From contig JBEKXW010000001.1 of the NCBI GenBank assembly GCA_049511615.1, positions 47,517 through 111,516 on the forward strand: DNA of 64,000 nucleotides, read 5' to 3'. This stretch comes from Candidatus Dormibacteria bacterium (GTDB taxonomy: Bacteria > Chloroflexota > Dormibacteria > Aeolococcales > Aeolococcaceae). Each line of letters begins with the position of its first letter. Position 1 is the stretch's first letter. Below the pieces are notes generated by a model, which was not told where the DNA came from, searched no databases, and was given only the letters and a program-made list of their open reading frames with translations. The position numbers were made by a program, and so were the translations under genes. Below are positions 2,965-59,406 of this stretch, piece after piece.

Positions 2965-2987
2965 CGGGGAGTGTCCAGTTCCCGCGG

Positions 2988-4316: not shown

Positions 4317-4371
4317 CTCCACGGCTCCCCGGCCCGGCCGCGCCCCATGGCGCCGCCGTCGATCCCGGCGC

Positions 4372-6311: not shown

Positions 6312-6336
6312 GTTGAGTACGCTAACCGACAGCGCG

Positions 6337-8132: not shown

Positions 8133-8282
8133 GCCATGGGGGTCGAGGGCGACGGCGGCACCTCGCCGCTCGGAGCGCCGGCTGATCCTTGTGCGGCTGA
8201 TCCACCGCTCGCGGGCGTCCATACCACCACAGACCAGCGTCCAAATCACCAGGATCCCAGCCCTGCCAGCTAGAATGGCGGG

Positions 8283-9662
8283 GTGTCGACAACGCTGCGG
8301 CGCGAAATCCGGCGCCGCCATCTCCTCCCACGTCTCACCGACGCCCTGGCCGATACCCGCGTGGTCCTTATCACCGGGGCGCGGCAGGCCGGGAAGAGCA
8401 CGCTCGCTCGGATGCTTCTGGCTCGGGTCAACGGTGCCGTGGAGTACACGCTGGACGACCCTGCGACGCTGGCCGCGGCTCGAGTCGACCCGACTGGATT
8501 CGTCACGGACAGGGCGACGATCTTCATCGATGAGGTCCAGCGCGCCCCCGAGCTGCTGCTCGCCATCAAGGCGGCCGTTGACCGGTCACCCGCAACGGCC
8601 AGGTTCCTCCTCACCGGCTCCGCCAACGTTCTCTCGATGGCTCGCGTCGCGGACACCCTGCCAGGTCGGATGGAGGTGGTCGAGCTCTCGCCCTTCTCCC
8701 AGGGGGAGGTGGAGGGCGAGGTCGACACCTTCATCGATCGCGCCTTCGATGGCTGGACCGATCGCACCGGTTCGTCGCTGACCAAGGGCGACTATCTGGA
8801 CCGAGCGGTCCGCGGCGGCTTCCCCGAGATCGTGCTCCACCGTGCCACCGAGCGACGGCGCGCCGCCTGGTTCTCGAGCTACATCGCCGCCACCGTGCAG
8901 AGGGAAGCGCGCGACATCGCCGGCGTCGAGCGGCCAGCCGAGCTGAGCCGTCTTCTCCGGCTGCTCGCGGCCCGCAGCGGCCAGCTCCTCAAGATCGAGG
9001 AGGTAGCTCGCGACGCGGACCTGCCATCCACGACGGCGCGACGCTTCATCCGCCTGATGGAGGCGGCGTACATCGTCCGCACCGTGCCGGGATGGGCGAC
9101 GAGCCGGACCACGCGTGTGGTGCGCATGCCCAAGGTCTTCGTCTGCGACAGCGGGCTCCTGTGCCACGTGCTGGGCGTGAATGCCGAATTCCTCGCCCTC
9201 CCCACCTCCACCATGGCCGGCCACGTCATGGAGACCTTCGTCACCATGGAGCTCTGGCGGCAGCTCGGGTGGTCGCGGACCCGCGCCGACCTCTTTCACT
9301 TCCGCACCAAGGACGGCACCGAGGTCGATGCGGTGCTCGAGGCGCCGGATGGCCGCATCGTCGGGGTGGAGGTCAAGGCGCGCGCAACCGTGCGGAGCGA
9401 GGACTTTCGCGGTCTCCGGCTGCTCGCGGACGCGGCCGGCGACCAGCTTCGCGCGGGCCTCGTGCTCTACACAGGAACGGATACGCTCGCGTTCGGGGAC
9501 AGGCTGCGATGCCTTCCCCTCAGCGCGCTCTGGGAGAGGGAGGGTGGCCAGCTCGAGCCCACGGCGACGGCCCAACCGGCGACCTCCGTTGACGGCCCTG
9601 GGACGATGCTGAGGTCTCGTCACCGCATGCGCTCGCCGGGCACAGAGGAGCGCCGCCCATGA
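8283..9662 (+). CDS. AAA+ superfamily ATPase of the COG1373 (AAA_14 + DUF4143) type
   Basis: N-terminal Walker A ([16 protein letters not shown]) and Walker B (IFIDEVQ), with a C-terminal DUF4143-like region. Its stop overlaps the menC ATG (ATGA). TAGAAT -10-like hexamer ~8 nt before the GTG. Confidence 0.75.
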
Positions 9663-10537
9663 CCGCGCCACCTGCCGGCGCCCGCCGTCTCCCCTTCACG
9701 GTGGCGCTGCGCCAGCCGGTGCTCGGGGTCACCACCCGCGCCGGCTGGTTGATCCAAGGCGACGCCGGGTGGGCGGAGTGGTCCCCCCTCCCCAGCTGGA
9801 GCCGCGAGGAGAACGCGGCCGCCTACTTGGGGGCGCTGGAGGCCGCCGGCCTTCCCTTCCCGGAGCCCGTGCGCGGCTCCGTCGAGATCAACACCATGGT
9901 CCCCCGGGTCCCCCCGGGCGTCGCCGCCCGGATGGCGGTGATCTCGGGCTGCGCCACCGTCAAGGTCAAGGTCGGCGATGCCGACGGGGAGGCCCGGGTC
10001 CGCGCGGTGCGGGAGGCGGTCGGTCCCGGCGTCCGCATCCGGGTCGACGCCAACGGCGCCTGGGACCTCGACGAGGCGGAGCGCGCCCTGGACCGCCTCG
10101 CCGGCCTCGACATCGAGATGGTCGAGGACCCCGTGGACGGGCTCCGCGAGATGGCCGCGCTCCGCCGCCGCTGCGCGGTGCCGGTCGGCGCCGAGATGGC
10201 GATCCGGTGCCTGGAGGACGTGGTCGAGATGCGCCGCCTGGACGCCGCCGACGTGCTGGTCGTCAAGCCCCAGCGCATCGGGGGGATCGCCGCCGCGCTG
10301 CGCGCCGCCGAGCTGGCCGGGGTCCCGGTGGTCGTCTCCAGCGCCCTCGAGACCTCGGTCGGCCTGTCCGCCTGCCTGGCGGTGGCCGCGGCCCTCCCCG
10401 CCTCGCCCTACGCCCACGGCATCGGCACCGCCACGCTGCTCGCCGAGGACGTCACCGCCAACCCGCTCCTCCCCGTCCGGGGGCGGCTCGTCCCCCGCCG
10501 GGTCGAGCCCGACCTCCTGCTCGTACGCCGGCGGTGA
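9659..10537 (+). CDS. menC: o-succinylbenzoate synthase (MenC, enolase superfamily)
   Basis: Enolase-superfamily barrel motifs (KVKVG...[10 protein letters not shown]...DIEMVEDP...VVKPQRIGG) in men context. Confidence 0.8.
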
Positions 10538-12306
10538 CCGCCCCCACCCCGCCGGCGGACGGCGACGTCGCTCTCGCCTGCATGGCTCAATTCGCCGGCG
10601 AGCTCCACCGCCAGGGCCTCCGCGACGTCTGCATCTCGCCGGGGTCGCGCTCCACCCCGGTGGCCCTCGCCTTCGCCCGGCACGGCGGCTTCCGGCCTCA
10701 TGTCCACCTCGACGAGCGCTCCTCCGCCTTCTTCGCGCTGGGCCTGGCCCGCGCCACCGGCCGGCCCGTCGCCGTCGTCTGCACCTCCGGGACCGCGGTG
10801 GCCAACTGGCTGCCGGCGGTGGTCGAGGCCTCGATGTCGGGCGTCCCCCTGCTGCTGCTCTCCGCCGACCGGCCCCCCGCGCTGCGCGGCACCGGGGCCA
10901 ACCAGACCATCGACCAGGTGGGCATCTTCGGGAGCTTCGTCCGCTGGTCGGTCGACGCCCCTCTTCCCGAGGAGGGCCCCGGCGCCGCCCGCTCCTGGCG
11001 CTCGCTGGCGGCCGAGGCGGTGGCCCGGGCGTGGGGCGAGCCCTCGGGGCCGGTGCACCTCAACCTGCCCTTCGCCGAGCCGCTGGTGCCGCTGGGGGCG
11101 GCCGTCGATCTCGGAGCCACGCCCCGACCCGGTCGCGGCGGCGGCCCGCCCCGGGCGGCGCTCCCGTCCACACCCGACCCGGGCGTGGTGGAGGAGCTGG
11201 CCGCGCTCATCGGCAAGACCGAGCGCGGACTGGTGCTGGCCGGCGGCCTGCCGTCACCCCGCGATGCCGGCGGCGCTTCCGCCATCGCCGGGCTGGCCGC
11301 CGCCGCCGGCTGGCCGCTGATCGCCGAGCCCGGGTCGGGCCTGCGCACCGGTCCGCCGGCGCTGGCGGCGGGGGTGCTGCTGCTCGGCGCCGCCGGCTTC
11401 GTCGAAGCCCACGCCCCCGACCTGCTGATCCAATTCGGCTCCACCCCCACCAGCCGGACCGCGCTCGCCGTGGCCGCCCGCGCCCGGCGCCTGGTCGTGG
11501 TGAGCCGGCCGGGAACCGCGGCCGACCCCGGGCGGGCCGCCTGGAAGACGGTGTGCTGCGATCCGCCCGTCCTGGCGGCGGCACTGACCGACCGGCTGGC
11601 GCGGCGAGCCGGGACGGCCTGGCTGCGCACCTGGTTCGAGGCCGACCGGCTGGCGGCGGCCACCGTCGCCGCCTGGATGGAGGAGCTCGGCGAGGAGCTC
11701 TTCGAGGGCCGGGTGGCGCGCGACCTCGCCGTCTGCCTCCCGGACGGCGCCACCCTCTTCGCCGGGTCGAGCATGCCGGTGCGCGACCTGGATGGCTTCA
11801 TGCTGCCGCGGAGCGGGCTGCGGGTGGTCGGCAACCGCGGCGCGAGCGGGATCGACGGGTCGTTGTCGACCGCGCTGGGGCTGGCGGCGGGCGCCGATCC
11901 ACCGGCCGGCGCGACCGGCACGCGCAGCTTCGCCCTGGTCGGCGACCTCGCCTTCCTGCATGACGCCGGGGCGCTGCTCTGGAGCTCAGGCCGCGGCCAC
12001 GATCTGGTCATTGTTGTCATCAACAATGAGGGCGGGGGGATCTTCGGTCTCCTGGACCAGTCCCGGCTCGCCGAGCACGAAGCGCTCTTCGCCACTCCTC
12101 ACGGCGTCGACATCGGTGCCGTGTGCGCCGCCGCCGGCGCCAGCCATCGCACCGTCACGCGTACCGCGGAGCTGGTGCCCGCCGTCACCGCCGCACGGGC
12201 GGCCGGCGGCGTCCAGGTGGTCGAGATCCGCACCGAACGCCGGCGCAACGCGGAGCTGCATCGGGCGGTGGCTGTCGCCGTCGAGGAGGCGGTGTCGGGC
12301 GCCTAA
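10534..12306 (+). CDS. menD: 2-succinyl-5-enolpyruvyl-6-hydroxy-3-cyclohexene-1-carboxylate synthase (MenD, ThDP-dependent)
   Basis: N-terminal block [19 protein letters not shown]...[14 protein letters not shown]...[18 protein letters not shown] is the MenD/ThDP pyrimidine-binding domain. GTG at 10534 overlaps the menC stop (GTGA). Track ORF 9769..12306 is over-extended. Confidence 0.85.
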
Positions 12307-12728
12307 CGGCGTCGCGTTTCGGTGAGCTTCTCCAAGCGGCGCGCGTTCTCCACCATCCCCCGGATGGCCTGCAGGCTCGCCTCGGACAGACCGGAGGAGG
12401 CAAGCGCGATCGCCCTGACCCCCGCATCGCGCATCACCGCGAGCAGGGCGAGCTGGGCCTGGCTGTCGGTGTCCGACACCTCGTCGAAGAAGTAGCCGGG
12501 GTTCACCCCGAAGAAGCGGGCCAGGGCCTCGAGGTGCGCTTTGGTCGGGTTGGTCCGGAGGCCCCTGCGGAGCTGCCAGAGGTAGGTTGCGGACACGGTC
12601 GGGCCGCCCACCCGCTGGAGTGCCGCGGCGACCTCGGCGTTGCTGAGCGGTGGCCGCCCGGCAGGGTGCACCGTCTGGAAGAGGCGTTCGAGCTTCTCGG
12701 CGAGGCTCGGGCTCCCCTCAAACTTCAT
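12303..12728 (-). CDS. EspR-like nucleoid-associated HTH transcriptional regulator
   Basis: [37 protein letters not shown]...[37 protein letters not shown] aligns with mycobacterial EspR (FAARLNRLFDTVYPPGR...SAPYLSQLRSGNRTNP...AALANFF). ATG at 12728. Confidence 0.7.
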
Positions 12729-12844
12729 CGACGCTCCCCTCGTCAACTCGCAGTAGTCATAGCACACCGCCCCGATCCAGTCGAGTTGATGCGAATCCCG
12801 ACCCCCAAAGTCAAGATTCGCCCTTCACCGGGTAGACTTCGCCC

Positions 12845-14041
12845 ATGTCCCAAACCTCCCGAGATCTGCTCGCCGCCGCGCGCCGGACCGTCCGCGAGCT
12901 GACCCCCCACCAGGTGCGGGAGACCGGGGAGCGGGTTCTGATCGACGTCCGCGAGCAGGACGAGTGGGACCAGGGCCACATCCCCGGGGCGCTCCACCTG
13001 AGCAAGGGATACATCGAGATGCGGATCGAGGAGACGGTGCCCGACCGCTCCACCCCGATCACGCTCTACTGCGCCGCCGGGGTCCGCTCCCTGTTCGCCG
13101 CCCAGGTGCTCGACGGGATGGGCTACCACGACGTCGCCTCCATGTCGGGGGGCTTCGACGCCTGGAAGCAGGCCGGTTATGAGTTCGTGATCCCCCGAGC
13201 CCTGACCGTCGAGCAGAAGCTCCGCTACAGCCGCCACCTGCTCATGCCCGAGATCGGCGAGGAGGGCCAGGCCAAGCTCCTCGAGGCCAGGGTGCTGCTC
13301 ATCGGCACCGGCGGGCTGGGCTCGCCGGCCGCCCTCTACCTGGCCGCCGCCGGGGTGGGGACCCTCGGGCTGGTCGACTTCGACACCGTCGAGGTGAGCA
13401 ACCTGCAGCGCCAGATCCTCCACACCCAGGACCGGATCGGCATGCCCAAGACCCAGTCCGCCAGGATCGCCCTCAACGCGCTCAACCCCGACGTCCGGGT
13501 GGTCGAGCACGACGAGATCCTGAACAGCGAGAGCGCTCCCCGGCTCTTCCGCCAGTACGACATCATCGTCAACGGCTGCGACAACTTTCCGACCCGCTAC
13601 CTGGCCAACGACGTCGCCATCTTCGAGCGCAAGCCGCTGGTGGACGGCGGCATCTTCCGCTTCGAGGGTCAGGTGTCCACCATCCTGCCCTTCACGTCGC
13701 CTTGCTACCGCTGCCGCTACCCGGCGCCGCCGCCGCCCGAGGAGGCGCCGTCCTGCGCCGAGGCGGGGGTGCTCGGCGTGCTGCCCGGCATCGTCGGCGT
13801 GCTCCAGGCGACCGAGGTGGTCAAGCTGATCCTCGGGGTCGGCGCGCCGCTCACCGGACGCCTGCTCCACATCGACGCCCTGGACATGCGCTTCCGCGAG
13901 TTCCGCGTGCCCCGCGATCCCGAGTGCCCGGTCTGCGGTGAGCACCCGACCATCACCGAGCCGATCGACTACGAGGGCTTCTGCGCGGTCCCGCTCACCC
14001 GTCCCGCGGCGGCTCCCCCGGCGCTCGCGACCGCCGGCTGA
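12845..14041 (+). CDS. rhodanese-domain / ThiF-MoeB-type E1-like adenylyltransferase fusion (rhodanese N-terminal)
   Basis: Residues ~1-110 form a rhodanese domain with catalytic Cys (LYCAAGVRS). The rest is ThiF/MoeB (LLIGTGGLGSPAALYLAAAGVGTLGLVDFD, RQILH) with two CxxC pairs (CYRC, CPVC). Confidence 0.85.
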   Translation: MSQTSRDLLAAARRTVRELTPHQVRETGERVLIDVREQDEWDQGHIPGALHLSKGYIEMRIEETVPDRSTPITLYCAAGVRSLFAAQVLDGMGYHDVASMSGGFDAWKQAGYEFVIPRALTVEQKLRYSRHLLMPEIGEEGQAKLLEARVLLIGTGGLGSPAALYLAAAGVGTLGLVDFDTVEVSNLQRQILHTQDRIGMPKTQSARIALNALNPDVRVVEHDEILNSESAPRLFRQYDIIVNGCDNFPTRYLANDVAIFERKPLVDGGIFRFEGQVSTILPFTSPCYRCRYPAPPPPEEAPSCAEAGVLGVLPGIVGVLQATEVVKLILGVGAPLTGRLLHIDALDMRFREFRVPRDPECPVCGEHPTITEPIDYEGFCAVPLTRPAAAPPALATAG

Positions 14042-28214: not shown

Positions 28215-30869
28215 TTACTCTCGTGCCGGCTCGTAGAAGACCATCTGGTTGGCCTGGAAGTGGAGATCGATCTTGGTCGTCGGGCCGTTCCGGTTCTTCT
28301 CCACCAGCAGCTCCGTCACCGAGCGGTCGATGTCCTCCTTGTGCATTCCCGGGCGGTAGAGGAAGAGCACCACGTCCGCGTCCTGCTCAATTGAGTTATG
28401 GACTACTATGTCATTTACTATGAGATCATGCAGGCCGTCAACCGTGATGTCATACACCGCCTCGGTGCCGTCCGCTGTGATGGCTGACACCGGGTCCCAG
28501 TAGACGTCACTTTCGGCGAGCCGGAAGAGCTCCTCGCTCTCCAGGATCGCGGCCGCCTGGCCGGCACGGGCGCGATCGAGTCCGTGCGCGAACAGGGCGC
28601 TCCCGTGATAGTGGGTGCCCATGGCTGCCTGAAGACTGCGCTGCCTCATCGCGGCTGCACTCATGGCTGGTATCACGACCGCTCTCCAGGCGGCCGCCGG
28701 GACGACGTCGCGATTGGGGTTCCTGTCGGTGCGGTCGAGCCGGTCGGCGATCCTGGCGATGTGGTCGGCGGCGCCCGGGCGCACGCCTCCCACCAGGGCG
28801 ATGAACCGCAACAGGTCGTCGCCCCCGGAGATTCCGACGTGGTACTGATCTCGACCCTTGCCGCTCTGGGTGACCCTGCGGATGTGGGTGGCGATGTTGA
28901 GCTGCAGGAGCAGCGAGCGGACACCGAAGGCCAGGTCGCGGCTGCTGCTCGCGTAGTAGACGCCGGGAACCTCGTGCAGGGCCTCGGACATGTGGATGCA
29001 GCCGTCGGTGGCCCAGAGGTGGCGCAGGAAGGTGGCGATCCCGCTCACCGTCTGCGCGAAGACGGCGTCGGGAACCCGCTTCTCATACGAGCGCAGACCG
29101 AAGGCGCCGAGCCCATCCAGCCACGCGGCGACGGGGTTGCGACGGCCGTGGGTGAGCCGTTCGGCCGACGCCAGGTACACCTGGTACCAGGTGCGCTCTT
29201 GGTTGATCCTCGGGACCACCTCGTCCCCGAACACCCGGCGCGCAAGACCCGCCACCAGCTCCGCCAGCTCACGGTCCTTGGTCGTGTACTGGATGACGTG
29301 GCGGGGGAGGGTGCAGCCGTCGCCGATGAGGTGACCGAGGAGAGCGAGCTCGTCGTCGCTCATGGTGGCGTGGTCACCGCAGGGCAGCCATCGCGGAGTC
29401 GCCAGGTGGGTGCCCGGGGTGAGCTCGTCGAGCCGGCGCCACCCCTCCACGGTGAGGAACCGGTGGTTGGCCGAGGCGCGGATGGCACGCCCCGAGCGGA
29501 GCTGGAGCCGGAAGACCGGTTTGACCCCGGAATGGAATGCCCGGACCGCCCGCCGCGGCTCCAGCTGCCACGTCTCCGGGTTGAGCGCCAGCACCTCGAA
29601 GTCCTCTCTGCCCACCAGGTCACGGATCGGGACGGGGCGGCACTCGCCGGCCAGCCACACCAGGCTCTCCCCGGTGAGACACCCGGAGTCACGGAGGTCG
29701 CTCAGCTGGGGCTTGCGGTTCTCCCGGCGCTCCGACTCGCGGGAGAGCTGGGAGAGGGCGAGCACCGGGATGTGGAGCTCCTTGGCGATGGTCTTGAGGC
29801 CGCTCGAGATCTCCGACACCTCCTGGACCCGTGAGTCCTGACGGCCGCCCCGCATCAGCTGGAGGTAGTCGACCACCACCAGGTCGACGTTGTGCTGCGC
29901 CTTCATCCGCCGGGCCCGGGCGCGCAGCTCGCTGATCGGGAGCGCGGGGGTGTCGTCGATCCAGATGTTGGCCTGGGAGAGCCGGTCCATGGCGCCGGCG
30001 ATGCGCTCGAAGGCGTGAGCGTCGGCCTGGCCGGTGCTGATCAGGTAGGCGTCCACCTTGGCCTCGCTGCAGATGAGCCGCTGCACCAGCGCCTGCTTGC
30101 TCATCTCCAGGGAGAAGATGACCACCCGCCGCTCGGCGAGCACCGCGGCGTTGCGGGCGATGTTGAGGGCGAACGAGGTCTTGCCCACCGCCGGTCTCGC
30201 CGCCAGCACGATCAGCTCGTCGGGCTGGAGGCCCTGCGTCACCGCGTCCAGCCGGCTGTAGTTGGTCGGCACGCCGTGGACGATCTGGCGGCTCTGGGCC
30301 CGCCGCTCCATCAGCTCCCAGGTGTCGGTGAGCATCTGGGCGATGTGGCTGATCTCCAGGCTGCGCTGGGAGTCGGCGATCGAGAAGATCCGCCTCTCCG
30401 CGGTGTCCAGGATGTCCTCGGTCCGCTGACCGGCGTCGAAGCCCAGCTGGGCCATGTCACCGGCGGCCGCGATGAGACGGCGGCGCAGCGAATGGTCGAC
30501 CACGATCTGGGCGTAGTGGCGCACCGAGGCGGCGGTGGGCATCTTCTGGCTCAGCTCGGCCAGGTACTCGATGCCCCCGCTGTGGGCCAGGGTGCCGTCG
30601 CGTTCCAGCTGCACCTTGAGGGTGAGGACGTCGACGGGTTCGCCGCGGTCGGAGAGTGCCAGCGCGGCGCGGAAGATGTGCCCGTGGCGCTCCGCGTAGA
30701 AGTCGCCCGGAGCGAGGATGTCGCGGATCGTGAGGATGGCGTTCGCGTCGATGAGCAGGCAGCCCAGCACCGCCTGCTCAGCGTCCAAGTCGTGTGGCAG
30801 GACGCGCCCTGACGGCGCGGCCGGCCCGACTGTTGCCGGCCCCCGCAACTCCTGCGGAGGCGTGCTCAC
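28215..30869 (-). CDS. dnaB: replicative DNA helicase DnaB, interrupted by an in-frame intein
   Basis: DnaB N-terminal domain, Walker A (GKTSFALN) and Walker B. An insertion beginning 'CLTGESLVW' after ...SDLRDSG and ending '...VVHN' before 'SIEQDADVV' interrupts the frame. Confidence 0.95.
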   Translation of the reverse strand: MSTPPQELRGPATVGPAAPSGRVLPHDLDAEQAVLGCLLIDANAILTIRDILAPGDFYAERHGHIFRAALALSDRGEPVDVLTLKVQLERDGTLAHSGGIEYLAELSQKMPTAASVRHYAQIVVDHSLRRRLIAAAGDMAQLGFDAGQRTEDILDTAERRIFSIADSQRSLEISHIAQMLTDTWELMERRAQSRQIVHGVPTNYSRLDAVTQGLQPDELIVLAARPAVGKTSFALNIARNAAVLAERRVVIFSLEMSKQALVQRLICSEAKVDAYLISTGQADAHAFERIAGAMDRLSQANIWIDDTPALPISELRARARRMKAQHNVDLVVVDYLQLMRGGRQDSRVQEVSEISSGLKTIAKELHIPVLALSQLSRESERRENRKPQLSDLRDSGCLTGESLVWLAGECRPVPIRDLVGREDFEVLALNPETWQLEPRRAVRAFHSGVKPVFRLQLRSGRAIRASANHRFLTVEGWRRLDELTPGTHLATPRWLPCGDHATMSDDELALLGHLIGDGCTLPRHVIQYTTKDRELAELVAGLARRVFGDEVVPRINQERTWYQVYLASAERLTHGRRNPVAAWLDGLGAFGLRSYEKRVPDAVFAQTVSGIATFLRHLWATDGCIHMSEALHEVPGVYYASSSRDLAFGVRSLLLQLNIATHIRRVTQSGKGRDQYHVGISGGDDLLRFIALVGGVRPGAADHIARIADRLDRTDRNPNRDVVPAAAWRAVVIPAMSAAAMRQRSLQAAMGTHYHGSALFAHGLDRARAGQAAAILESEELFRLAESDVYWDPVSAITADGTEAVYDITVDGLHDLIVNDIVVHNSIEQDADVVLFLYRPGMHKEDIDRSVTELLVEKNRNGPTTKIDLHFQANQMVFYEPARE
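28395..29681 (-). mobile_element. DnaB intein (429 aa) with LAGLIDADG homing-endonuclease domain
   Basis: Block A Cys1 (CLTGESLV), LAGLIDADG-type motifs (LLGHLIGDGC, FLRHLWATDGC) and a terminal HN followed by Ser+1. Removing it restores a contiguous DnaB. Confidence 0.85.
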
Positions 30870-46720: not shown

Positions 46721-48025
46721 ATGGATCCGGTGACGGGCGCTCGCATCCTCTGCGTCATGGGCTCCGGGGAGACCGCCCCGACCATGGCCCCCGTCCACCG
46801 CGAGCTCATCGAGCGGGTGGGGGGGGACGCCGCGCGAGCGGTGCTTCTCGACACCCCCTTCGGCTTCCAGGAGAACGCCGACGAGCTGGTGGCGCGGGCC
46901 CAGGAGCACTTCGACCGCAGCATCGGCCACCCTCTGGAGCTGGCCAGCCTGCGCCGCGCCGAGACCGCCACCGAGGTCGAGCGGGAGGCCGCCTACAGCC
47001 GCATCCACGCGGCGGACTACGTCTTCTCCGGGCCGGGCAGCCCCAGCTACACCCTCCGCCAGTGGCGCCAGACCGAGGTCCCCGGTCTGCTGCGCGACAA
47101 GCTGGAGCAGGGCGGCTGCGTCACCCTCGCCTCGGCGGCGGCGATCACCCTCGGGATCGTCTCCCTCCCCGTCTACGAGATCTACAAGGTGGGCGAGCCG
47201 GTCCACTGGCTGGACGGTCTCGACCTGCTCGCCGTCGCCGGCATCCGCGCCGCGCTGATCACCCACTGGGACAACGCCGAGGGCGGGACCCACGACACCC
47301 GCTTCTGCTACATGGGCGAGGGTCGCCTCACCCAGCTCGAATCCCTCCTCCCCGACGGGGTGGCCATCCTGGGGGTCGACGAGCACACCGCTCTGATCCT
47401 CGACCTCGGCGCCGAGCGGGTCGAGGTGCGCGGCCGGGGGCGGGCGGTGGTGCGCCGGAGCGGGGTGGAGTCGAGCCTCCCCGCCGGCACCGAGACCACC
47501 CTCGGGGAGCTGCGGGCGATGCTCACCGGCGCCGGCGGGCCAGCGGCCCGGTCCACGGTCCCGGCCCGGGTGGAGGTCCCCCCGGAGCCCGCCGGGCGGG
47601 AGGAGCCGTTCATGGCGCTCCTCGGTGAGCGTCAGGATGAATTCGACCGCGCCCGTGACCGCAGCGACGTGGCGGGGATGGTCGCCGCCATCCTGGGCCT
47701 CGAGACGACCATGGCCGAATGGTCGAGTGAGACCTTCTCCGGCGACGAGCGCGAGCGGGGCCGGTCGCTGCTCCGGCGGATGGTGACCCGGCTGGGGGAG
47801 CTCGCCACCGAGGGGGCCGCCGACCCCCGGGAGCGGGTCGCCCCCTTCGTGGAGGCGATGCTGGCGATGCGCCGGCAGTTCCGGGCGGAGCGGCGCTTCG
47901 ACGACGCCGACCACCTCCGCGACCTGCTCACCGGGTGCGGGATCGAGGTGCGCGACGGCCACCGGGGCGAGGGCAGCGGCTGGGAGCTCGCGCCCCGGGC
48001 GGCGGGCCGCCCGGGGACCCCGTGA
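46721..48025 (+). CDS. fusion protein: peptidase S51/cyanophycinase-like (class-I glutamine amidotransferase-like) N-domain + cysteinyl-tRNA synthetase C-terminal (DALR_2-like) domain
   Basis: N-terminus ILCVMGSGETAP...YVFSGPGSPSY...LGVDEHTALILD resembles S51/cyanophycinase. The C-terminal ~140 aa (FMALLGERQDEFDRARDRSDVAG...ERRFDDADHLRDLLTGCGIEVRDGHRGEGSGWEL) parallels the CysRS C-terminus (FMEAMDDDFNTP...[33 protein letters not shown]). Confidence 0.55.
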   Translation: MDPVTGARILCVMGSGETAPTMAPVHRELIERVGGDAARAVLLDTPFGFQENADELVARAQEHFDRSIGHPLELASLRRAETATEVEREAAYSRIHAADYVFSGPGSPSYTLRQWRQTEVPGLLRDKLEQGGCVTLASAAAITLGIVSLPVYEIYKVGEPVHWLDGLDLLAVAGIRAALITHWDNAEGGTHDTRFCYMGEGRLTQLESLLPDGVAILGVDEHTALILDLGAERVEVRGRGRAVVRRSGVESSLPAGTETTLGELRAMLTGAGGPAARSTVPARVEVPPEPAGREEPFMALLGERQDEFDRARDRSDVAGMVAAILGLETTMAEWSSETFSGDERERGRSLLRRMVTRLGELATEGAADPRERVAPFVEAMLAMRRQFRAERRFDDADHLRDLLTGCGIEVRDGHRGEGSGWELAPRAAGRPGTP

Positions 48026-51310: not shown

Positions 51311-52368
51311 TCGGACCGCCGGCGGCCGTCTCCGCGCCGACGGGTAGCATGGCCCCCGTGGCCAGCCTTTCCGACGCGAGGTGGAGTTCGGCTGTTGGCG
51401 AGGCCGCCTGGATCGGCGGGCGGCTCGCCCCCTTCGAGGTCCGCTGGGTCGCATCGGTGATCCCCGGCGGCTTCGAGGCATACGCCCGAGTCCTGCACCC
51501 CGCCTCCGTCCGCGCTCCTGGTGAGGGGGCTCCGGTGCGCTGGCGCGACGTGGCTGCCTGGAGTGGGGGTTCGGTCGACCGCGGCACCCAGTTCCACTCG
51601 ATCGCCCTGCCCCCGGTCCGACCGGCCGGGGAGCCGCCCTGGCGGGGCCAGGGTCCGCTCACCGGAACCCCCTACCCGCCGGACGCTGCGGTCCTCGTCG
51701 AGGTCCTGCGGGCGGCGACCACGACGCCCGAGCGGTGCTGCTTCTGCCTCTGGGACGGCTACGGCTGGGAGCGGGGGAGGAACTTGCTCACCCGCCGCGG
51801 GGAGCCTCCGGTCCGGCTCCCCGGCCCCATCCCCGAGCGGGTGCTCACCGGACCGCGGGTGCGCCTGCCGCACCGCGACTACCTCCTCTACACGGGACCG
51901 GCGGAGGCCGTGTTCGCCCCCCTGCTCCTCGGCGAACGGCACCAGCAGGCGGCGAACCTCTGGTGGCCGGCGGATCGGGCCTGGTGCGTCGCCAGCGAGA
52001 CCGATCTGGCCTGGACCTACGTCGGAGGGACCGCTGCGGCCATCGACCGCCTGCTCGGTGACGCCCGGGTCGAGGCCGTCCCCGCGGCTGCCGACGACCC
52101 TCTCACCCGGGTCGAGGCGTGGGTGCAGCGCTGGGTGGACGAGGCCACCGAGGCTCTCCTCGCCACCGGTCGGGCCACCATCGCCACGTCGATGGGGTCG
52201 CTCGAGGCTCTCCTGGAGCGTCCGCGAGGGCGCCGGCCGGGACGGCTGCGCATCCACCGGGACGGCTGGAGCGCAGACACCGTGGTCCGCCACGCCGGGA
52301 AGGAGGGACTTCGCCGGGCGGTATCCTCCTACGTCACCCATGCGGTGATCGAGCTTGTCGGCGGATAG
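51307..52368 (+). CDS. hypothetical protein (353 aa), operonic with sensor kinase
   Basis: Track ORF trimmed to ATG 51307, which overlaps the HK stop. No recognisable family. Contains a CCFCLWDGYGW block. Confidence 0.45.
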   Translation: MIGPPAAVSAPTGSMAPVASLSDARWSSAVGEAAWIGGRLAPFEVRWVASVIPGGFEAYARVLHPASVRAPGEGAPVRWRDVAAWSGGSVDRGTQFHSIALPPVRPAGEPPWRGQGPLTGTPYPPDAAVLVEVLRAATTTPERCCFCLWDGYGWERGRNLLTRRGEPPVRLPGPIPERVLTGPRVRLPHRDYLLYTGPAEAVFAPLLLGERHQQAANLWWPADRAWCVASETDLAWTYVGGTAAAIDRLLGDARVEAVPAAADDPLTRVEAWVQRWVDEATEALLATGRATIATSMGSLEALLERPRGRRPGRLRIHRDGWSADTVVRHAGKEGLRRAVSSYVTHAVIELVGG

Positions 52369-52930
52369 CGGGGAGGGCCCGGGGATGGCGGGACGGACCA
52401 GGCCACGCCACGTCATCGCCCGGTTCCTGGGCTCCCCCGCTGATCAGGTGGCCGTTGTGGGCGGGAGCGTCACCGAGGCGGGGAGCGCGCGGGTCCTGGA
52501 CAGCGTGGCCGTGGCGGGGAGCGCGCGGGTCGTGGAGAGTGCCGCCGTCGCGGGCAGCGTCGCGGTGCTGCGCAGCGCCGGGGTGGCGGGGAGCGCGGCG
52601 ACGGCCTACTCGGCCGGGATCGCGGGCAGCGCGGCCACCGCGGTGTCGGCGGCGGTGGCGGGGAGCGCTGCGACCGCCGGCTCCGCCGCCGTGGCGGGGA
52701 GCGCACTGACCCTGGCCAGCACCGCGGTCGCGGGCAGCGTGCTCACGCTCCTCGGTGCCGTCATCGGGGGATGCGTCGCCACCCTGGCATGCCTGCGCTG
52801 CACCCGGTGCGTGGCCTGTTTCGCCTGCGCCGACTGTGTCGACTGCATCGGTTGCCTCGGCTGCCGGGGCCGGCGCGGAGCGGTGGGCCGGGTCGGGGAG
52901 CGCGCGACACTCCCCGCCCGCCGGCGCTAA
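52355..52930 (+). CDS. low-complexity tandem-repeat protein: ~8 x 12-aa (V/I)AGSAxxAxSAA repeats + hydrophobic segment + C-terminal (CXX)9 cysteine ladder
   Basis: The DNA shows ~36-nt periodic repeats (recurring gtggcggggagcgc). These are followed by a 9-nt periodic tgc-containing array encoding CVATLACLRCTRCVACFACADCVDCIGCLGC. Overlaps the upstream ORF end by 14 nt. Coding status unproven. Confidence 0.4.
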   Translation: MSADSGEGPGMAGRTRPRHVIARFLGSPADQVAVVGGSVTEAGSARVLDSVAVAGSARVVESAAVAGSVAVLRSAGVAGSAATAYSAGIAGSAATAVSAAVAGSAATAGSAAVAGSALTLASTAVAGSVLTLLGAVIGGCVATLACLRCTRCVACFACADCVDCIGCLGCRGRRGAVGRVGERATLPARRR

Positions 52931-52939
52931 CCTCGTCGC

Positions 52940-53143
52940 ATGTGTCGCAGCATCAAGACGCTCCGCGGCGCCGTTCCCCCGGCGTCGACCGGCGATATCG
53001 AGGCCGCCGCGCTCCAGTACGTGCGCAAGGTGAGCGGCTACCGCCAGCCCGCGCAGCGCAACCGGGACGCGTTCGAGGCCGCGGTTGCCGAGATCTCGGC
53101 GGCCACCGACCGGTTGCTGGCGCAGCTGGTGCCGGGGCGCTGA
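52940..53143 (+). CDS. DUF2277-family small protein
   Basis: MCRSIKTLRGAVPPASTGDIEAAALQYVRKVSGYRQPAQRNRDAFEAAVAEI matches the conserved actinobacterial DUF2277 consensus (MCRNIKTL...AALQYVRK(I/V)SG). Confidence 0.8.
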   Translation: MCRSIKTLRGAVPPASTGDIEAAALQYVRKVSGYRQPAQRNRDAFEAAVAEISAATDRLLAQLVPGR

Positions 53144-53216
53144 GCCCCCTCCGTTCCCGGCCGACCGGCACGCGCGGATTGCCGCGGGCGGGAGCCCGGC
53201 GAGCCATGCCCCCGTC

Positions 53217-53582
53217 TCAGGCGGCGCTGCGGTCGTCCCCGTCCAGCACGATCGTCCTCTGATCGCGGGCGATCCGGGTCAGCTCGTCGTCCCGACCCTG
53301 CCACATCATGGCGATCATGCGGAGGTCGCCGCGCAGGCTCCAGAGCGGATGCCCGAGGCTGGCCGGCCGGTTCTTCTCGATCGCGAGGTGGCTGTACCAG
53401 GCCAGGCCGCAGCCGATCGCCGGGAGCGCGAGGACGCCGGCGGGCCGCCGCGCGACCAGTGCCGCCGCCGCCGCCGCCACCCCCAGGTGGGCGCCCGTGA
53501 AGTGCAGCCAGCGGGTCGCCGGCCGGCTGTGCTGGCTGACGTAGTAGGGAAAGAAGTCCTCGTAGCTGCGGAACTCCCGCAC
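53217..53582 (-). CDS. DUF962 (Mpo1-like) family membrane protein
   Basis: FRSYEDFFPYYVSQHSRPATRWLHFTGAHLGV...AWYSHLAIEKNRPA is the DUF962/Mpo1 signature. Confidence 0.7.
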   Translation of the reverse strand: MREFRSYEDFFPYYVSQHSRPATRWLHFTGAHLGVAAAAAALVARRPAGVLALPAIGCGLAWYSHLAIEKNRPASLGHPLWSLRGDLRMIAMMWQGRDDELTRIARDQRTIVLDGDDRSAA

Positions 53583-53831
53583 CCCGGCGCCTCCGTGCCC
53601 GCTGATCCTGGGGGCCAGGGTACGCCCCCGGCCGCAGGCCTGTGACGAGGCGGTTGCCCGCCGGCGGCGATTCCCGGGCCGCGTGGGATGCTGGATCCGC
53701 TCGATCTTCCCCGTCCTCCTCAGTCCTCCTCAGACCCGGTGACCCGGAAGCCACGGGCATCGTCGCCGGCGCTCCCCGCGTCGGAACCGCGCGGGGAGCC
53801 TCGTCCCCTCCTGACCCACGCCCGCCCCGGG

Positions 53832-54461
53832 TCAGCGCTGCGGCCGCCGGGCCTCTGCCAGGAACACCGGGACCACCGGGCCGAAGAGCGACCGGCGCCG
53901 CCAGGCGCTGAACCCCGCGTCCCGCAGCAGCCCGGCCAGCTCCGCGGCGTTGCGGTATCCGACCCCGTGACGGCCCGCCGCCGGGCGCAGGAGGCGACCG
54001 ACGAAGCCGATGCCGAAGATGTCGGCGATGAGCAGCCGGCCCCCCGGTCCCAGCACCCGGGCCACCTCCCGCAGCGATGCCTCCTGCCGCTCCCAGTGGT
54101 GGAAGGAGAGGGTCGTCGTGACCACGTCGGCGCACCCGTCGTCGAGGGGCAGGTGGTCGGCGGTCGCCACCTCGAACCGGACGTGCGGCTCGCCCGCGAA
54201 GCGGCTGCGGGCCACCGAGATCATCCCCTCGGCGGGATCGACGCCGACCAGCTCGGCGCCGGGCAGGCGTGCCAGCAGCGCCTCCAGCAGCCGGCCGGTG
54301 CCGCAGCCGACGTCGACGACCCGCTGCGGGACGCTCCCCGCGCAGACGGCATCGACCACCGGGCGGTGGACCCGCGCGAAGAGCGACTGCCCCGGGGTGC
54401 GGTCGTAGCTGGCCGCCCAGCGGTTGAAGTGGGCGACGTCGCCGTGATGCGCTCTCTTCAT
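53832..54461 (-). CDS. class I SAM-dependent methyltransferase
   Basis: VVDVGCGTGRL (motif I)...PGGRLLIAD (post-II). Methyltransf_11/25-type. Confidence 0.8.
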   Translation of the reverse strand: MKRAHHGDVAHFNRWAASYDRTPGQSLFARVHRPVVDAVCAGSVPQRVVDVGCGTGRLLEALLARLPGAELVGVDPAEGMISVARSRFAGEPHVRFEVATADHLPLDDGCADVVTTTLSFHHWERQEASLREVARVLGPGGRLLIADIFGIGFVGRLLRPAAGRHGVGYRNAAELAGLLRDAGFSAWRRRSLFGPVVPVFLAEARRPQR

Positions 54462-56595: not shown

Positions 56596-58499
56596 GGCAG
56601 GTCGATCTCCAGACGGGTTCCCTTGCCGGTCGGGCTGTCGAGGGTGAGGTGGCCGTCCAGGGCGCTGATCCGATCCACCAGCCCGTTGAGGCCGGTCCCT
56701 CCACCGAACTCCGCGCCGCCGACGCCGTCGTCGCTGACCTCGATCAGGAGGTGGTCGTTGTCGAGGCGGGCGGTGATCGTGACCGAGGTGGCGTGGGCGT
56801 GCTTGGCGGCGTTGGTCAGCGCCTCGCAGATCGCGAAGTAGGCGGCGGACTCCACCGAGTCGGGAAGGCGGCGATCCGCCGCGATGCGCAGCGTCACCGG
56901 GAGGGGCGCGTTCTCGGCCAGCGACTCCAGGGCGGGGCCGAGGCCGGCATCGGAGAGGATGGCCGGCCGGATCCCGGCGGCCAGCCGGCGCAGCTCCTCC
57001 AGCGCCTTCTGGAGCTGCCGCTCGCCATCCCGCAGGAGCTCCCCGCTCCCCTCCCGGCCGTCGTTGAGGCGCTCGGCGGCCCTGCTCAGGGTGAGGGCCA
57101 GGGCGACCAGCCGCTGCTGGGCCCCGTCGTGGAGGTCGCGCTCCAGCCGTCTGCGCTCCTGGTCGGCGACGGTCACCAGGCGGGCCCGCGACTCCCGGAC
57201 CTCGGCCAGCCGGGCCAGCACGTCGGCCTGGAGCCGCTCGTTCTCGATGGCGAGCGCCGCCGCCCCCGCCACCGCCGCCACCAGGGTGGGGTCGTTCTCC
57301 AGCGAGCGGTCGTGGATCAGCGCCGCCACCGCCTCGCCGCCGCGCTCCAGGACGGTGATGGCGCGGGCGGACCGGCCGTCGGGGAGGCTGAGCGGCCTTC
57401 CCTCGGCATCGACCCATCCCTCCCTCTCCGGCACCTGGTAGGCGAGCGCGAGCGAGGGGTCGTGCAGGGTCTCCGCCAGGGCGTCGCGGATCCGTCCCGG
57501 CGGGGGCGACGCCCCGAGCTCCACCACCAGGTGGCCGACGTCGGCGACGGCGAGGCGGCTGCGCAGCAGGCCGAAGATGAAGGAGACGGGAAGCGAGGCG
57601 AGCGCGATCGGCGTCAAATACGGCACCGCGCTGCTCAGCACCGGGGCCGAGCCCACCACTCCCGGGAGGGACAGCAGGATGGCGGCCAGCAGCATCGGTC
57701 CGCTGGCCCAGACCGCGGGTCCGAGGGCTCGCCGGGCCGGCGGGGTGCCGCGGGCGTAGTGGACGGCCACCAGAGCGACGACGACGACGGCGAGGGTCGC
57801 GTCGAGTCCCTGCTGGAGGGCGTCGAAGATGGCGTACTGGGTGGCGTCCCGGTGGAGCACGAAGAGCTCGGTGCTCCCGGCCGGGGCGAAGAGCACGTGG
57901 GTGAAGAGGTTGCCCCCCAGGGCCCAGAGGTAGGCGGCGGTCACCACCACGCGGTCGGTCCTGGTCTCCAGGCGGCCGCTCGGGAAGGCCACGACCAGGT
58001 GGCCGAGGAAGCCGAAGTAGGCGACGAAGAAGAAGTCCCCCAGGGCATAGGGGAGCGGGGCTGTGGCGTGGGTCAGGTCCTGGACGAACCAGGCGATGCC
58101 GACCGCCACCATCAGCTGGCCGGTCCGGTTGCGCGGGCGCCGCCACCAGGCGGCGCCGCCGACCAGCACGTAGGTCAGCCCGCCGGCGATATGGAGCGCG
58201 ATCCCCGCCGCCGTCTGGCCGGCGGGGTGGATCAGGTCGAGGCGCAGGGCCAGGGCCGCAACCACCACGCCAAGAGCCGTCGCCGCGACGGGCAGCGCAA
58301 CGCCGCCGCGAGGGGCGGATGCCGTGCGAGGGAGGAGGACCGCCCGGGCCACCGCGGGATTGTCACATGGCCGGACGCCCGTCGAATCCGGGAAACCCCT
58401 CGGGTCATCTCCCGGCGTCTGGCGTCGCGGGGTCGCGACGGTGACGGCGACCGGCCGCGACTCATGGCACACTCGGCCGGTGCTCCTCCCGATCACCAC
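56586..58499 (-). CDS. multi-TM sensor histidine kinase (HisKA_3/HATPase_c, NarX/LiaS-like), cognate to the 55930 regulator
   Basis: N-terminal ~6 TM helices, a GAF-like middle region, and an H-box LERDLHDGAQQRLVAL (HisKA_3). HATPase_c present (EALTNAAKHA...DDGVGG...GLNGLVDR). Its 3' end overlaps the regulator start by 10 nt. Start codon uncertain. Confidence 0.8.
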   Translation of the reverse strand: MVIGRSTGRVCHESRPVAVTVATPRRQTPGDDPRGFPDSTGVRPCDNPAVARAVLLPRTASAPRGGVALPVAATALGVVVAALALRLDLIHPAGQTAAGIALHIAGGLTYVLVGGAAWWRRPRNRTGQLMVAVGIAWFVQDLTHATAPLPYALGDFFFVAYFGFLGHLVVAFPSGRLETRTDRVVVTAAYLWALGGNLFTHVLFAPAGSTELFVLHRDATQYAIFDALQQGLDATLAVVVVALVAVHYARGTPPARRALGPAVWASGPMLLAAILLSLPGVVGSAPVLSSAVPYLTPIALASLPVSFIFGLLRSRLAVADVGHLVVELGASPPPGRIRDALAETLHDPSLALAYQVPEREGWVDAEGRPLSLPDGRSARAITVLERGGEAVAALIHDRSLENDPTLVAAVAGAAALAIENERLQADVLARLAEVRESRARLVTVADQERRRLERDLHDGAQQRLVALALTLSRAAERLNDGREGSGELLRDGERQLQKALEELRRLAAGIRPAILSDAGLGPALESLAENAPLPVTLRIAADRRLPDSVESAAYFAICEALTNAAKHAHATSVTITARLDNDHLLIEVSDDGVGGAEFGGGTGLNGLVDRISALDGHLTLDSPTGKGTRLEIDLPCG

Positions 58500-59406
58500 C
58501 GACGTCCTCGTCGAGGAGGCGCGGCGGCTCGGCGACGGCGACCACCGCTACACCTCCCGCCAGCTGTACTACGCGGCCTGCCGGGCTGTGGAGCGGCCGC
58601 CGGAGTCCGCGACCCGCGGTTTCATCGGCCTGGGCGCGGTCCTGGTCGTCCTCGCCGGAGCGTTGCTCTGGGTGCACTCCGTCCCCCTCTCCCCCGTCCT
58701 TGCCGGTCTCGGGGTCGTGTCCCTGCTCGCCGCACCGGTCAACGCTCGCGTCGAGCGCGCCCGCGCCCGACGGCGTGCCCAGGGGAGCCGGACCCTGGCG
58801 ACGAGCTACACCGGTTTCTGTGCCGGGCCCCTGGAGGAGGCGCAGAGGAGCCGGCCCGAGGAGTTCGGCGCCCTGGTCGCCGGCACCCCGCCCCCGGCCC
58901 GCGCGCCCACCCTGCCGGAGCTGACGGTAGCCGGTGGGCGGGGCCGCGCCGCCCCCCTCATCGTCTGTGATCGCGGCGAGACGGCGGAACTGCTCGCCGC
59001 CAACGCCGGCCGGCTCCCGGAGGGTGCCGCGGTGGCCGACCTCGCTGGGCTCCTGGATGGCGACGGTGACGGCTTGCCGCCGGAGGTGCGGGGGCGCCGG
59101 CTGGTGGCGGTCCACGACGCCGACCCCGCCGGCTGCGGGATGCCGGCGGCGCTGCGCCGGGCCGGCGCCGTTGACCTCGTCGACGCCGGCCTCCGCCCTC
59201 CCGCCTGCGACGCCGGGCTCCACGTCATCGAGGGCGCCCCGGCCCGCCTGCCCGCCGGGATCGAGGCCGACCTGAGCGTCCCCGAGCTCCACTGGCTGCG
59301 GAGCGGCCGCCGTCTCGAGCTGGCCACCCTGACCCCGCGCGAGGTCGTGGCGCTGGTGCTCGACGCGGTTCCGGCCGTCTCCGGCGAGGTGCGCTCGGTC
59401 AGCTGA
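58480..59406 (+). CDS. hypothetical protein with two predicted TM helices
   Basis: Track ORF 58324..59406. GTG at 58480 proposed to avoid overlap with the divergent HK. No family recognised. Confidence 0.3.
   Translation: MLLPITTDVLVEEARRLGDGDHRYTSRQLYYAACRAVERPPESATRGFIGLGAVLVVLAGALLWVHSVPLSPVLAGLGVVSLLAAPVNARVERARARRRAQGSRTLATSYTGFCAGPLEEAQRSRPEEFGALVAGTPPPARAPTLPELTVAGGRGRAAPLIVCDRGETAELLAANAGRLPEGAAVADLAGLLDGDGDGLPPEVRGRRLVAVHDADPAGCGMPAALRRAGAVDLVDAGLRPPACDAGLHVIEGAPARLPAGIEADLSVPELHWLRSGRRLELATLTPREVVALVLDAVPAVSGEVRSVS

Follow-up and report, generated by a model that had tools for sequence, protein, structure and literature searches.

A hexad-repeat protein ending in a cysteine ladder: an undescribed family in Dormibacterota and other high-GC soil bacteria

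What is encoded where a tandem array of 36-nucleotide (nt) repeats runs into a 9-nt-periodic series of cysteine codons? The question is raised by an open reading frame (ORF) on the forward strand of a 64-kb stretch of DNA from a Candidatus Dormibacteria bacterium (64,000 nt of contig JBEKXW010000001.1, positions 47,517 to 111,516; the whole stretch is called the window below). An earlier note, made from the letters of the window, had described the two repeats and a possible Cys-rich protein. The comparisons reported here show that the locus encodes a member of an undescribed protein family of high-GC soil bacteria, namely Dormibacterota, Acidimicrobiia, Pseudonocardiaceae and Solirubrobacterales. 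In these hexad/ladder proteins an unbroken array of six-residue units (hexads) passes into a strict Cys-x-x ladder, an architecture without a described counterpart.

Repeat structure and coding frame

Tandem Repeats Finder reported a 36-nt period at 52466-52704, with additional 18-nt and 9-nt periods. Four perfect copies of GTGGCGGGGAGCGC occur in the window, all inside the hexad array. Four degenerate copies complete an exact 36-nt lattice with them (52475, 52511, 52547, 52583, 52619, 52655, 52691 and 52727). Autocorrelation of the array DNA at lag 36 is 0.69, and that of the ladder DNA is 0.62, 0.63 and 0.58 at lags 9, 18 and 27. The nine-rung ladder is the only Cys-x-x ladder across the six frames of the window; when the window was simulated 200 times with a third-order Markov model, no ladder of more than 3 rungs arose. 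The repeats are confirmed and lie far beyond chance. The 36-nt array and the nine contiguous rungs of the earlier note are borne out, the array by the repeat search, the eight-unit lattice and the autocorrelation, the ladder by its position and the simulations. The 9-nt periodicity also stands, but the ladder ends at 52864 and not at 52880, and a tenth, in-register Cys (52772-52774) had been overlooked. The 12-residue unit described in the same note is a pair of hexads, the basic period being 6 residues (18 nt).

When aligned in sixes from the last Cys, the window protein gives 25 consecutive hexads with no indel. Sixteen of the form x-x-x-S-x-x (VAGSAA, TAGSAA etc.) are followed by TLLGAV, IGGCVA, TLACLR, CTRCVA, CFACAD, CVDCIG, CLGCRG and RRGAVG. 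Because the 25 hexads run without a break, the ladder is, as read from the residues, the same repeat with Cys replacing both the Ser and the V/T positions. Thus array and ladder, which the earlier note took for two separate arrays, share one continuous hexad register that it had missed. The register also holds in the relatives: 648/662 (98%) of the xGS serines over 78 loci fall into a single mod-6 register, that of the ladder. The family consensus by position is V/T 85%, A 58%, G 65%, S 88%, V/A 74% and A 59%, and the S-x2-T-x8-C spacing at the junction is kept in 71-72/72 loci.

Counted from TTG 52355, the ORF at 52355..52930 has 191 amino acids (aa). It exists as described before, with a start that is probably different. 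ATG 52385, 30 nt downstream, is the most likely start, because it is preceded by GGAGG and because L002 and L004, the two syntenic orthologues, conserve both. TTG 52355 falls within the 3' end of the preceding gene and is less likely. The features of the gene are listed in Table 1.

Table 1. Features of the hexad/ladder gene, in window coordinates.
Feature	Position	Strand	Remarks
GGAGG ribosome-binding site	52372..52376	+	8 nt upstream of ATG; read from sequence
Coding sequence, hexad-repeat/Cys-ladder protein, 181 aa	52385..52930	+	stop TAA 52928-52930
N-terminal segment, residues 1-24, Arg-rich then weakly hydrophobic, MAGRTRPRHVIARFLGSPADQVAV	52385..52456	+	not conserved across clades
Hexad array, 16 hexads, residues 25-120, consensus [V/T/I]-A-G-S-[V/A]-x	52457..52744	+	eight 36-nt units, 52475-52762
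Hydrophobic junction TLLGAV IGGCVA, in hexad register	52745..52780	+	holds first in-register Cys, C130 (52772-52774)
Cys ladder, nine contiguous Cys-x-x rungs, C136-C160, CLRCTRCVACFACADCVDCIGCLGC	52790..52864	+	triplet consensus C-[V/I/L]-[G/A/D/R]
Basic tail RGRRGAVGRVGERATLPARRR	52865..52927	+	family consensus x-G-L-R-G-A-V-G-x-R-G-x-R-A, G and R invariant

The G+C content of the window is 73.6%, and that of the ORF at the three codon positions is 0.73-0.74/0.70/0.91. Since one antisense frame also has high third-position GC, composition alone does not decide whether the frame is coding. The repeats could be a satellite without coding function, or an RNA element, in a genome of high GC that contains long ORFs by chance. 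Besides the antisense frame, the low complexity of the sequence and four database relatives that are frameshifted in the ladder (P0008, P0024, P0025 and P0119) would fit such an explanation.

A species scan with the C-terminal module as query, one genome per species, gave 267 loci, and 80 of them were retrieved and examined. Contrary to what a spurious frame would show, the ORF frame is open in 80/80; the full ladder is present in 78, and the other two carry a single Cys substitution. When the module was codon-aligned over 72 loci, selected through a Cys pattern, invariant residues proved to be written with different codons: six for Arg R46, four each for Gly G41 and G44, and 3-5 for Thr. Cys is written TGC 587 times and TGT 133 times. 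The median dN/dS (ratio of nonsynonymous to synonymous substitution rates) of the module in these same Cys-pattern-recruited loci is ~0.26. Amino acids are thus kept through synonymous codon changes, and indels are multiples of whole codon units. L002 and L004, whose flanking proteins are 77-91% identical to those of the window, differ from it by one whole 36-nt unit, and in both the ribosome-binding site is conserved together with the start codon. Inside the window the repeat units diverge most at third codon positions. A search of the whole window with Rfam found no RNA family, and the antisense ORFs are only 78-80 aa long.

These results effectively refute the satellite or RNA explanation, whose chance is now negligible. 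Comparison of the loci shows that 52385..52930 encodes a real, conserved protein. The coding ORF that the earlier note placed on the forward strand is upheld by the open frames, the synonymous variation and the conserved start; its remark that the minus-strand ORFs are shorter also holds. It had asked whether relatives keep the frame open with a variable repeat number, and they do, with 3 to 14 hexads. The orthologue frameshifts or stops, or the non-coding satellite, that would have spoken against it were not seen in any of the 80 loci. The case illustrates that small, low-complexity genes of high GC can be under clear purifying selection and still escape gene callers and domain libraries.

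In six database relatives (P0008, P0024, P0025, P0119, P0125 and P0127) a frameshift within the ladder or immediately upstream of it turns the ladder into LRRLRRL. Pseudogenes, or errors made in sequencing the repeats, may account for them; no such ladder frameshift occurs in the 80 species-genome loci.

Extent of the family and its constant and variable parts

An exact-sequence look-up found no record of the window protein. Scans against Pfam and NCBIfam gave no family at E<=1, and PADLOC gave no match at E<=0.1, in agreement with the earlier statement that no characterised family matches. Literature on CXXC repeats, cysteine ladders and signature peptide strings was searched and yielded nothing on the hexad/ladder family. 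A search of 5.8 billion proteins returned 28 relatives that share the layout of AGS repeats, hydrophobic stretch, Cys ladder and GLRGAVG tail. Their upstream parts are mutually unrelated, probably owing to over-extended ORFs. A further search gave 69 homologous proteins. An exhaustive search of 1.84 billion cluster representatives with a hidden Markov model of the module gave 91 matches at E<=1e-3; the family is narrow, and its members are seldom found in protein databases.

The 80 retrieved loci are labelled Dormibacterota (27), Acidimicrobiia (27, including Ilumatobacteraceae and Desertimonas) and Pseudonocardiaceae (10; Actinomycetospora, Pseudonocardia), the remainder being Solirubrobacterales, Mycobacteriales, unclassified Actinomycetota and a few bins with unlikely labels. 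A conserved and largely unannotated gene is thereby added to hundreds of soil genomes, including those of the poorly understood Dormibacterota. Cultured strains of Actinomycetospora, Pseudonocardia and Desertimonas carry it, which makes experiments feasible; examples are Actinomycetospora rhizophila CGMCC 4.7134, Pseudonocardia yuanmonensis JCM 18055 and Desertimonas flava SYSU D60003. It is also present on the 3.3-Mb Dormibacterota chromosome OY970355.1. Among the unlikely labels, the bins of L007, L026, L034, L073 and L077 (Saccharimonadales, Acidiferrales, Chitinophagaceae, Polyangiaceae) have a G+C content of 66-69% and Dormibacterota- or Acidimicrobiia-type copies; these contigs are probably mis-binned.

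Over 78 loci the number of xGS hexads varies from 3 to 14, and the C-terminal module is nearly unchanged. In all 72 loci of the canonical pattern its ten Cys are invariant. Among 124 family proteins the Cys count of the module ranges from 8 to 13 and is 10 in 90/124; a single Cys falls out of the period-3 register. Rungs have come and gone singly, one triplet per step. Cys makes up ~32% of the module over 31 residues. A Thr, an Arg and two Asp are also conserved in the module, and the tail has an invariant G-x-R. At the other end of the protein, Dormibacterota share a conserved N-terminus, M-x-x-E-RRRR-IV-AAGLGLLATITAT-RVLA, followed by an acidic linker. The N-termini of Pseudonocardiaceae are short and acidic, and most family members have a short hydrophilic N-terminus and no signal peptide.

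A second subfamily (P0049, P0051, P0052, P0061, P0064, P0071, P0073, P0096, P0111 and P0128) is built of GSAGV[V/I] hexads, in which every third residue is Gly. Its ladder of 8-9 rungs is preceded by G-[IL]-[GA]-N-[VLA]-G-C.

Ladders that lack hexads, and that often end in xLRG, are also present in phage proteins and in proteins of low-GC bacteria. Against phrog_15341, a phage family whose function is unknown, these give E values of 1e-4 to 1e-39, and the window protein gives a weak match (E=0.0019, 18.7 bits) confined to the 31 low-complexity residues 130-160. Both groups have runs of C-hydrophobic-[D/N/G/A] triplets, some ending in G-L-R-G, but the phage proteins have 15-40 rungs, other N-terminal regions and no AGS hexad array. 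Recurrence of the ladder without hexads suggests that it is a self-contained small domain. In two viral contigs the ladder genes lie among genes for DNA polymerase A, a clamp-like protein, a methyltransferase and a nuclease, with no peptide-modifying enzymes; their annotation in Campylobacter phages is 'hypothetical'. With the C-terminal module of the window protein as query, tblastn against cultured phage genomes gave no match, and a scan of viral contigs gave ladder-type relatives only.

The phage ladder proteins L084 5712-7165 and L085 5418-5834 (viral contigs) and L090 3001-3426 (Campylobacter phage CPt10) share a conserved N-terminal region of ~35 aa, and their ladders have 15-30 Cys rungs. 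The ladder genes of all three lie in replication modules, and those of L084 are tandemly duplicated. In CPt10 a radical-SAM gene is located 0.9 kb downstream of the ladder gene.

The hexads invite comparison with known repeat folds, and the protein could belong to one of them: a left-handed beta-helix of hexapeptide repeats, a Tenebrio-type antifreeze beta-helix, or a collagen- or polyproline-II-like structure, possibly binding ice or surfaces. Left-handed beta-helices follow the hexapeptide rule [LIV]-[GAED]-X2-[STAV]-X. The hexad [V/T]-A-G-S-[V/A]-A fits this rule if Thr is allowed at position i. Like LpxA and LpxD (PF00132), the array has a six-residue period, an aliphatic residue or Thr followed by a small one, a small residue at +4, and long uninterrupted runs. 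LpxD appears among the sub-threshold PDB matches (E 0.9-1.5), and in one relative, P0115, a genuine Hexapep acetyltransferase runs on into a ladder. Subfamily 2, with its periodic Gly, comes near the Pfam Collagen threshold (25.2 vs 27.2 bits). Many samples are from peat or permafrost-type soils, judging by isolate names such as 'palsa', 'fen' and 'SPRUCE'. Against this, the window protein is missed by the Pfam models Hexapep, AFP repeat and Collagen at a cut-off as loose as E<=1, its hhalign probability with E. coli LpxD and LpxA is 0.1-0.2%, AlphaFold (AF2) predicts no beta-helix and Foldseek returns nothing. The antifreeze annotations in phage CPt10 have E values of 2-29. The hexad/ladder protein also differs from PF00132 proteins in the absence of profile similarity, of a predicted beta-helix, of a bulky Leu/Ile core and of a catalytic domain. 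Taken together, assignment to any of these classes appears very improbable.

Three candidate memberships were rejected individually. That in the left-handed beta-helix family PF00132 fell with the hhalign result and the missing Pfam match. A collagen-type helix (PF01391) is excluded for the window array, where third positions are G in 11, A in 10 and other residues in 11 of 32. For the insect antifreeze beta-helix (PF02420, TCTxSxxCxxAx) there is no Pfam match at E<=1, either with the window protein or with the ladder relatives. In antifreeze proteins every third residue (Cys, Ser or Ala) faces into the coil, and in silk the Ala/Gly/Ser hexapeptide forms stacked beta-sheets. The likeness of the window protein to these, including the GAGAGS of silk fibroin, lies in a 12-residue unit of small residues and is an analogy of shape only. 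It differs from them in lacking a Pfam match, a T-C-T face and, in most members, a secretion signal.

The ingredients, hexapeptide-like repeats and CxxC or Cys-Xaa-Xaa runs, are thus familiar. What is new is their fusion in one register, the strict conservation and the phyletic pattern. The earlier note had named precursors of peptides made on the ribosome and modified after translation (RiPPs), metallothioneins and beta-solenoids as analogies of which none fits. Indeed, none yielded family membership; the RiPP and metal-binding ideas are carried further below.

Cellular setting and possible function

To what does the gene belong? The surroundings of each retrieved locus (+/-8 kb) and the 64-kb window were examined. 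Clustering of ~1,200 neighbour ORFs gave synteny within Dormibacterota only, with MarR, a major facilitator superfamily (MFS) transporter, the hexad/ladder gene, ilvD and other branched-chain amino-acid genes; no gene was shared across clades. Adjacency to the MFS transporter is confined to Dormibacterota. A Pfam screen of 111 neighbours of 39 non-syntenic loci gave 128 families, and YcaO, SagB-type, Lan and radical-SAM families are absent from the 25 most frequent ones listed (down to 2 members). The clustering and this screen led to rejection of a conserved partner gene. In the window the gene starts 16 nt after a 339-aa ORF without Pfam match and ends 9 nt before a DUF2277 gene, and outside the closest relatives neither neighbour is retained. 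The gene is solitary: no partner is conserved across clades.

Fusions are found instead in the protein itself. A CYTH domain is joined in frame, N-terminal to the hexads, in three divergent proteins (28.0, 26.5 and 20.9 bits; Pfam cut-off 23.2). In two proteins a Ble/VOC-like region follows the ladder, with Pfam/NCBIfam scores below the curated cut-offs.

Structure prediction gave mean values of the predicted local distance difference test (pLDDT) of 48.7 for the window protein (18 aligned sequences) and 46.6 for the most regular relative (29 aligned sequences). The ladder is the only part of the window model near 70 (~70-74), with beta-bridges roughly symmetric about residue 148. In the model of the relative a 24-residue helix with pLDDT 66-71 covers the junction. 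Foldseek of the window model against the PDB gave 0 matches. Profile searches of the PDB with the whole protein and with the ladder gave only sub-threshold matches, to LpxD, a lantibiotic and PsaC. The middle rung is the one deleted in each of two independent single-Cys losses, and with the modelled bridges this hints at a hairpin with an unpaired apex and four cross-strand Cys pairs. It is kept as a hint only, because rung indels in other subfamilies keep no fixed centre. An architecture that AlphaFold cannot fold is a good target for structure determination.

How might such a protein act? We tentatively favour an autonomous cytoplasmic repeat protein, with the hexad array as a length-variable extended segment and the Cys ladder binding metal or mediating assembly; as a whole this reading is plausible and perhaps somewhat short of probable. 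It would serve in the cytoplasm as a structural or tethering module without enzymatic activity. The array could form an extended, beta-rich rod or spacer, its length tuned by gain or loss of 36-nt units, and the ladder would be the constant working end. In the reducing cytoplasm its thiolates might bind metal (Zn, Fe-S or Cu), and it could fold into a compact knot that probably holds copies of the protein together. Some lineages may tether the module, either through an N-terminal hydrophobic anchor (Dormibacterota) or through a CYTH enzyme domain (some Actinomycetota). The cytoplasmic setting is suggested by the CYTH fusions and by the lack of a signal peptide in most members.

Metallothioneins, CxxC zinc knuckles and ferredoxin-type proteins, of which SmtA, MymT and PsaC are examples, resemble the hexad/ladder protein in a Cys-rich segment with overlapping CxxC and CxxCxxC spacings and in a setting that is probably cytoplasmic and reducing. 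The ladder differs from them by its strict period of 3, hydrophobic spacers, conserved Arg and Asp residues and the long repeat array attached to it. If it binds metals, it would be a new metal-thiolate motif, shared with phage proteins.

Several observations weigh against this cytoplasmic, metal-binding or assembling protein. AlphaFold twice gave no confident fold, so that the array may be disordered and a rod or beta structure is unsupported. The residues between the cysteines are hydrophobic (V/I/L), unlike those of classical metallothioneins, and a Cys count of 8 to 13, odd as well as even, fits poorly with fixed four-Cys sites. PDB matches of the ladder to ferredoxin-type CxxCxxC motifs are not significant (E > 3). 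The Dormibacterota N-terminus, RRRR followed by a hydrophobic stretch, resembles a Tat/Sec signal or anchor, which means that at least those proteins may be exported or inserted into the membrane; it is the chief finding out of line with a cytoplasmic site. The comparisons establish that the gene is coding, belongs to a family, keeps one register and stands alone; the location, metal binding and shape of its protein are inferred.

This last N-terminus also leads to a different topology, in which the protein belongs to the cell envelope. The uncharged hexads would lie outside as a silk-like or solenoid surface layer or adhesin whose length varies, the junction would be a transmembrane helix, and ladder and tail would be cytoplasmic; or else the protein would be fully exported, with a disulfide-bonded ladder. 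By our reasoning from the positive-inside rule, the RRRR N-terminus of Dormibacterota together with RCRRC and the basic tail after the junction would give an in-out-in topology. The helix predicted over the junction of the relative is consistent with it. In-frame variation of repeat number between close relatives is typical of surface proteins, and the even count of 10 Cys is the commonest. On the other hand, a signal peptide or first helix is absent in most members, the CYTH fusions place the N-terminal side in the cytoplasm, and a conserved Arg lies in the middle of the junction, often beside Asn or Arg (60/72). Neither junction nor ladder is a clear membrane helix on the Hessa hydrophobicity scale (by hand), and odd Cys counts occur. 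An envelope protein, the second rival of the favoured reading, is judged unlikely.

The ladder itself raises another explanation, that of a large RiPP precursor in which Cys and the Ser of Gly-Ser are converted to thiazoles and oxazoles (or Ser/Thr and Cys to lanthionines) by maturases encoded elsewhere. Gly-Ser is a classical azole site of microcin B17, and the hexads carry it (G 65%, S 88%). The residue that precedes Cys is mostly small (G/A/D). The failure of AF2 to fold the protein is what a precursor would show, and few members are present in NCBI annotation. Among the closest known parallels are the heterocycloanthracin/sonorensin-type precursors of thiazole/oxazole-modified microcins (TIGR03601). 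They too have a C-terminal low-complexity Cys-Xaa-Xaa run in which whole triplets come and go, gene callers often overlook them, and they need not adjoin their partner genes. Heterocycloanthracin precursors have Cys-Xaa-Xaa repeats with unit-wise indels, and gene callers have missed them (PMC2674419); BA_2677 has 13 Cys in its C-terminal Cys-Xaa-Xaa run (Haft 2009, PMC2674419). The evolving unit in the present family is likewise one Cys-x-x triplet, with 8-13 rungs, and a distant ladder relative weakly matches TIGR03601 (E=6.8e-4, below cut-off).

Precursor and maturases may be far apart in such systems. The heterocycloanthracin precursor can lie 1.27 Mb from the cyclodehydratase, dehydrogenase and scaffold genes, and it is found if and only if these are in the same genome (PMC2674419). 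Remote precursors have been confirmed (PMC4603692). In view of this precedent a missing neighbouring maturase is not decisive, and its absence from the window is weaker evidence than it seems. No maturase was found in the 20 larger window ORFs scanned, in accordance with the earlier note; the only ThiF-family protein among them is a MoeZ-like ThiF-rhodanese fusion, 38 kb off.

Nevertheless, more than the missing maturase speaks against a precursor. A conserved leader is lacking, as N-termini are clade-specific and the C-terminus is the most conserved part. No NCBIfam or Pfam model, TIGR03601 included, matches the window protein, and a recurrent maturase within ~5 kb is seen at none of the 80 loci, which come from several phyla. 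The module is fused in frame to CYTH domains, the gene is single-copy and syntenic across Dormibacterota, and the identity of the ladder between phyla, ~65-75%, is unusual for a RiPP core. Phage relatives lie within replication modules. Compared with heterocycloanthracin precursors, the window protein is about twice as long, has a conserved hexad array and a conserved basic tail, shows no homologous leader, and carries hydrophobic (V/I) spacers in place of Gly-Gly or Trp-Ser; in its relatives the module is joined to enzyme domains. A RiPP precursor is the main rival of the favoured reading, with a small but real chance. If it is one, it would be unusually large and another case in which precursor and maturase are unlinked.

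A bolder possibility, to which we also give little weight, is a new period-3 polymer of the form [Ser/Thr/Val/Cys]-hydrophobic-small. Such a polymer might be a new fibrous or solenoid fold, its Ser ladder passing into a metal-bridged Cys ladder that zips copies into a cytoplasmic filament, or else a giant polyazole precursor of >100 residues with remote enzymes, in both Dormibacterota and Actinomycetota.

Rearrangements at the locus and other window genes

In close relatives, insertions of ~5.5 kb are found at differing points beside the gene (window 52930-53832; L002 8381-13938; L004 8189-13721). The insertion of L004 is between the gene and DUF2277, and that of L002 between DUF2277 and an Mpo1-like gene. 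L002 is also without three genes that lie upstream in the window, namely a lactonase-like gene, a histidine kinase gene and the 339-aa ORF. The hexad/ladder locus is a rearrangement hotspot. In three proteins from metagenome contigs of 0.9-4.9 kb (P0107, P0110 and P0112) the module is fused in frame with parts of a guanylate cyclase, an SRP54 GTPase and a branched-chain permease. These are probably assembly chimeras at the repeats; alternatively, the gene has been inserted into other genes.

The 339-aa ORF upstream of the gene (51349-52368, +) is matched by neither Pfam nor NCBIfam; of the fetched loci, only L004 conserves it. Two further well-formed ORFs on the forward strand, of 434 aa (46721-48025) and 321 aa (58441-59406), have no Pfam match at 1e-6; the former shows ~90% protein identity in L002 and L004. 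On the minus strand an 884-aa ORF (28215-30869) has LPHDLDAEQAVLGCLLI near its N-terminus and lies upstream of a 148-aa ORF of the size of ribosomal protein L9. We take the 884-aa ORF to resemble DnaB helicase, and its length may reflect an intein. At 1453-14041 a menaquinone-type set includes a chorismate-binding enzyme (2988-4322) and an AMP-binding ligase (5115-6311), and a 590-aa ORF (10534-12306) is, by length alone, a candidate for MenD. The same stretch contains a Mur-ligase-family gene (1453-3021) and the MoeZ-like ThiF-rhodanese gene (12845-14041).

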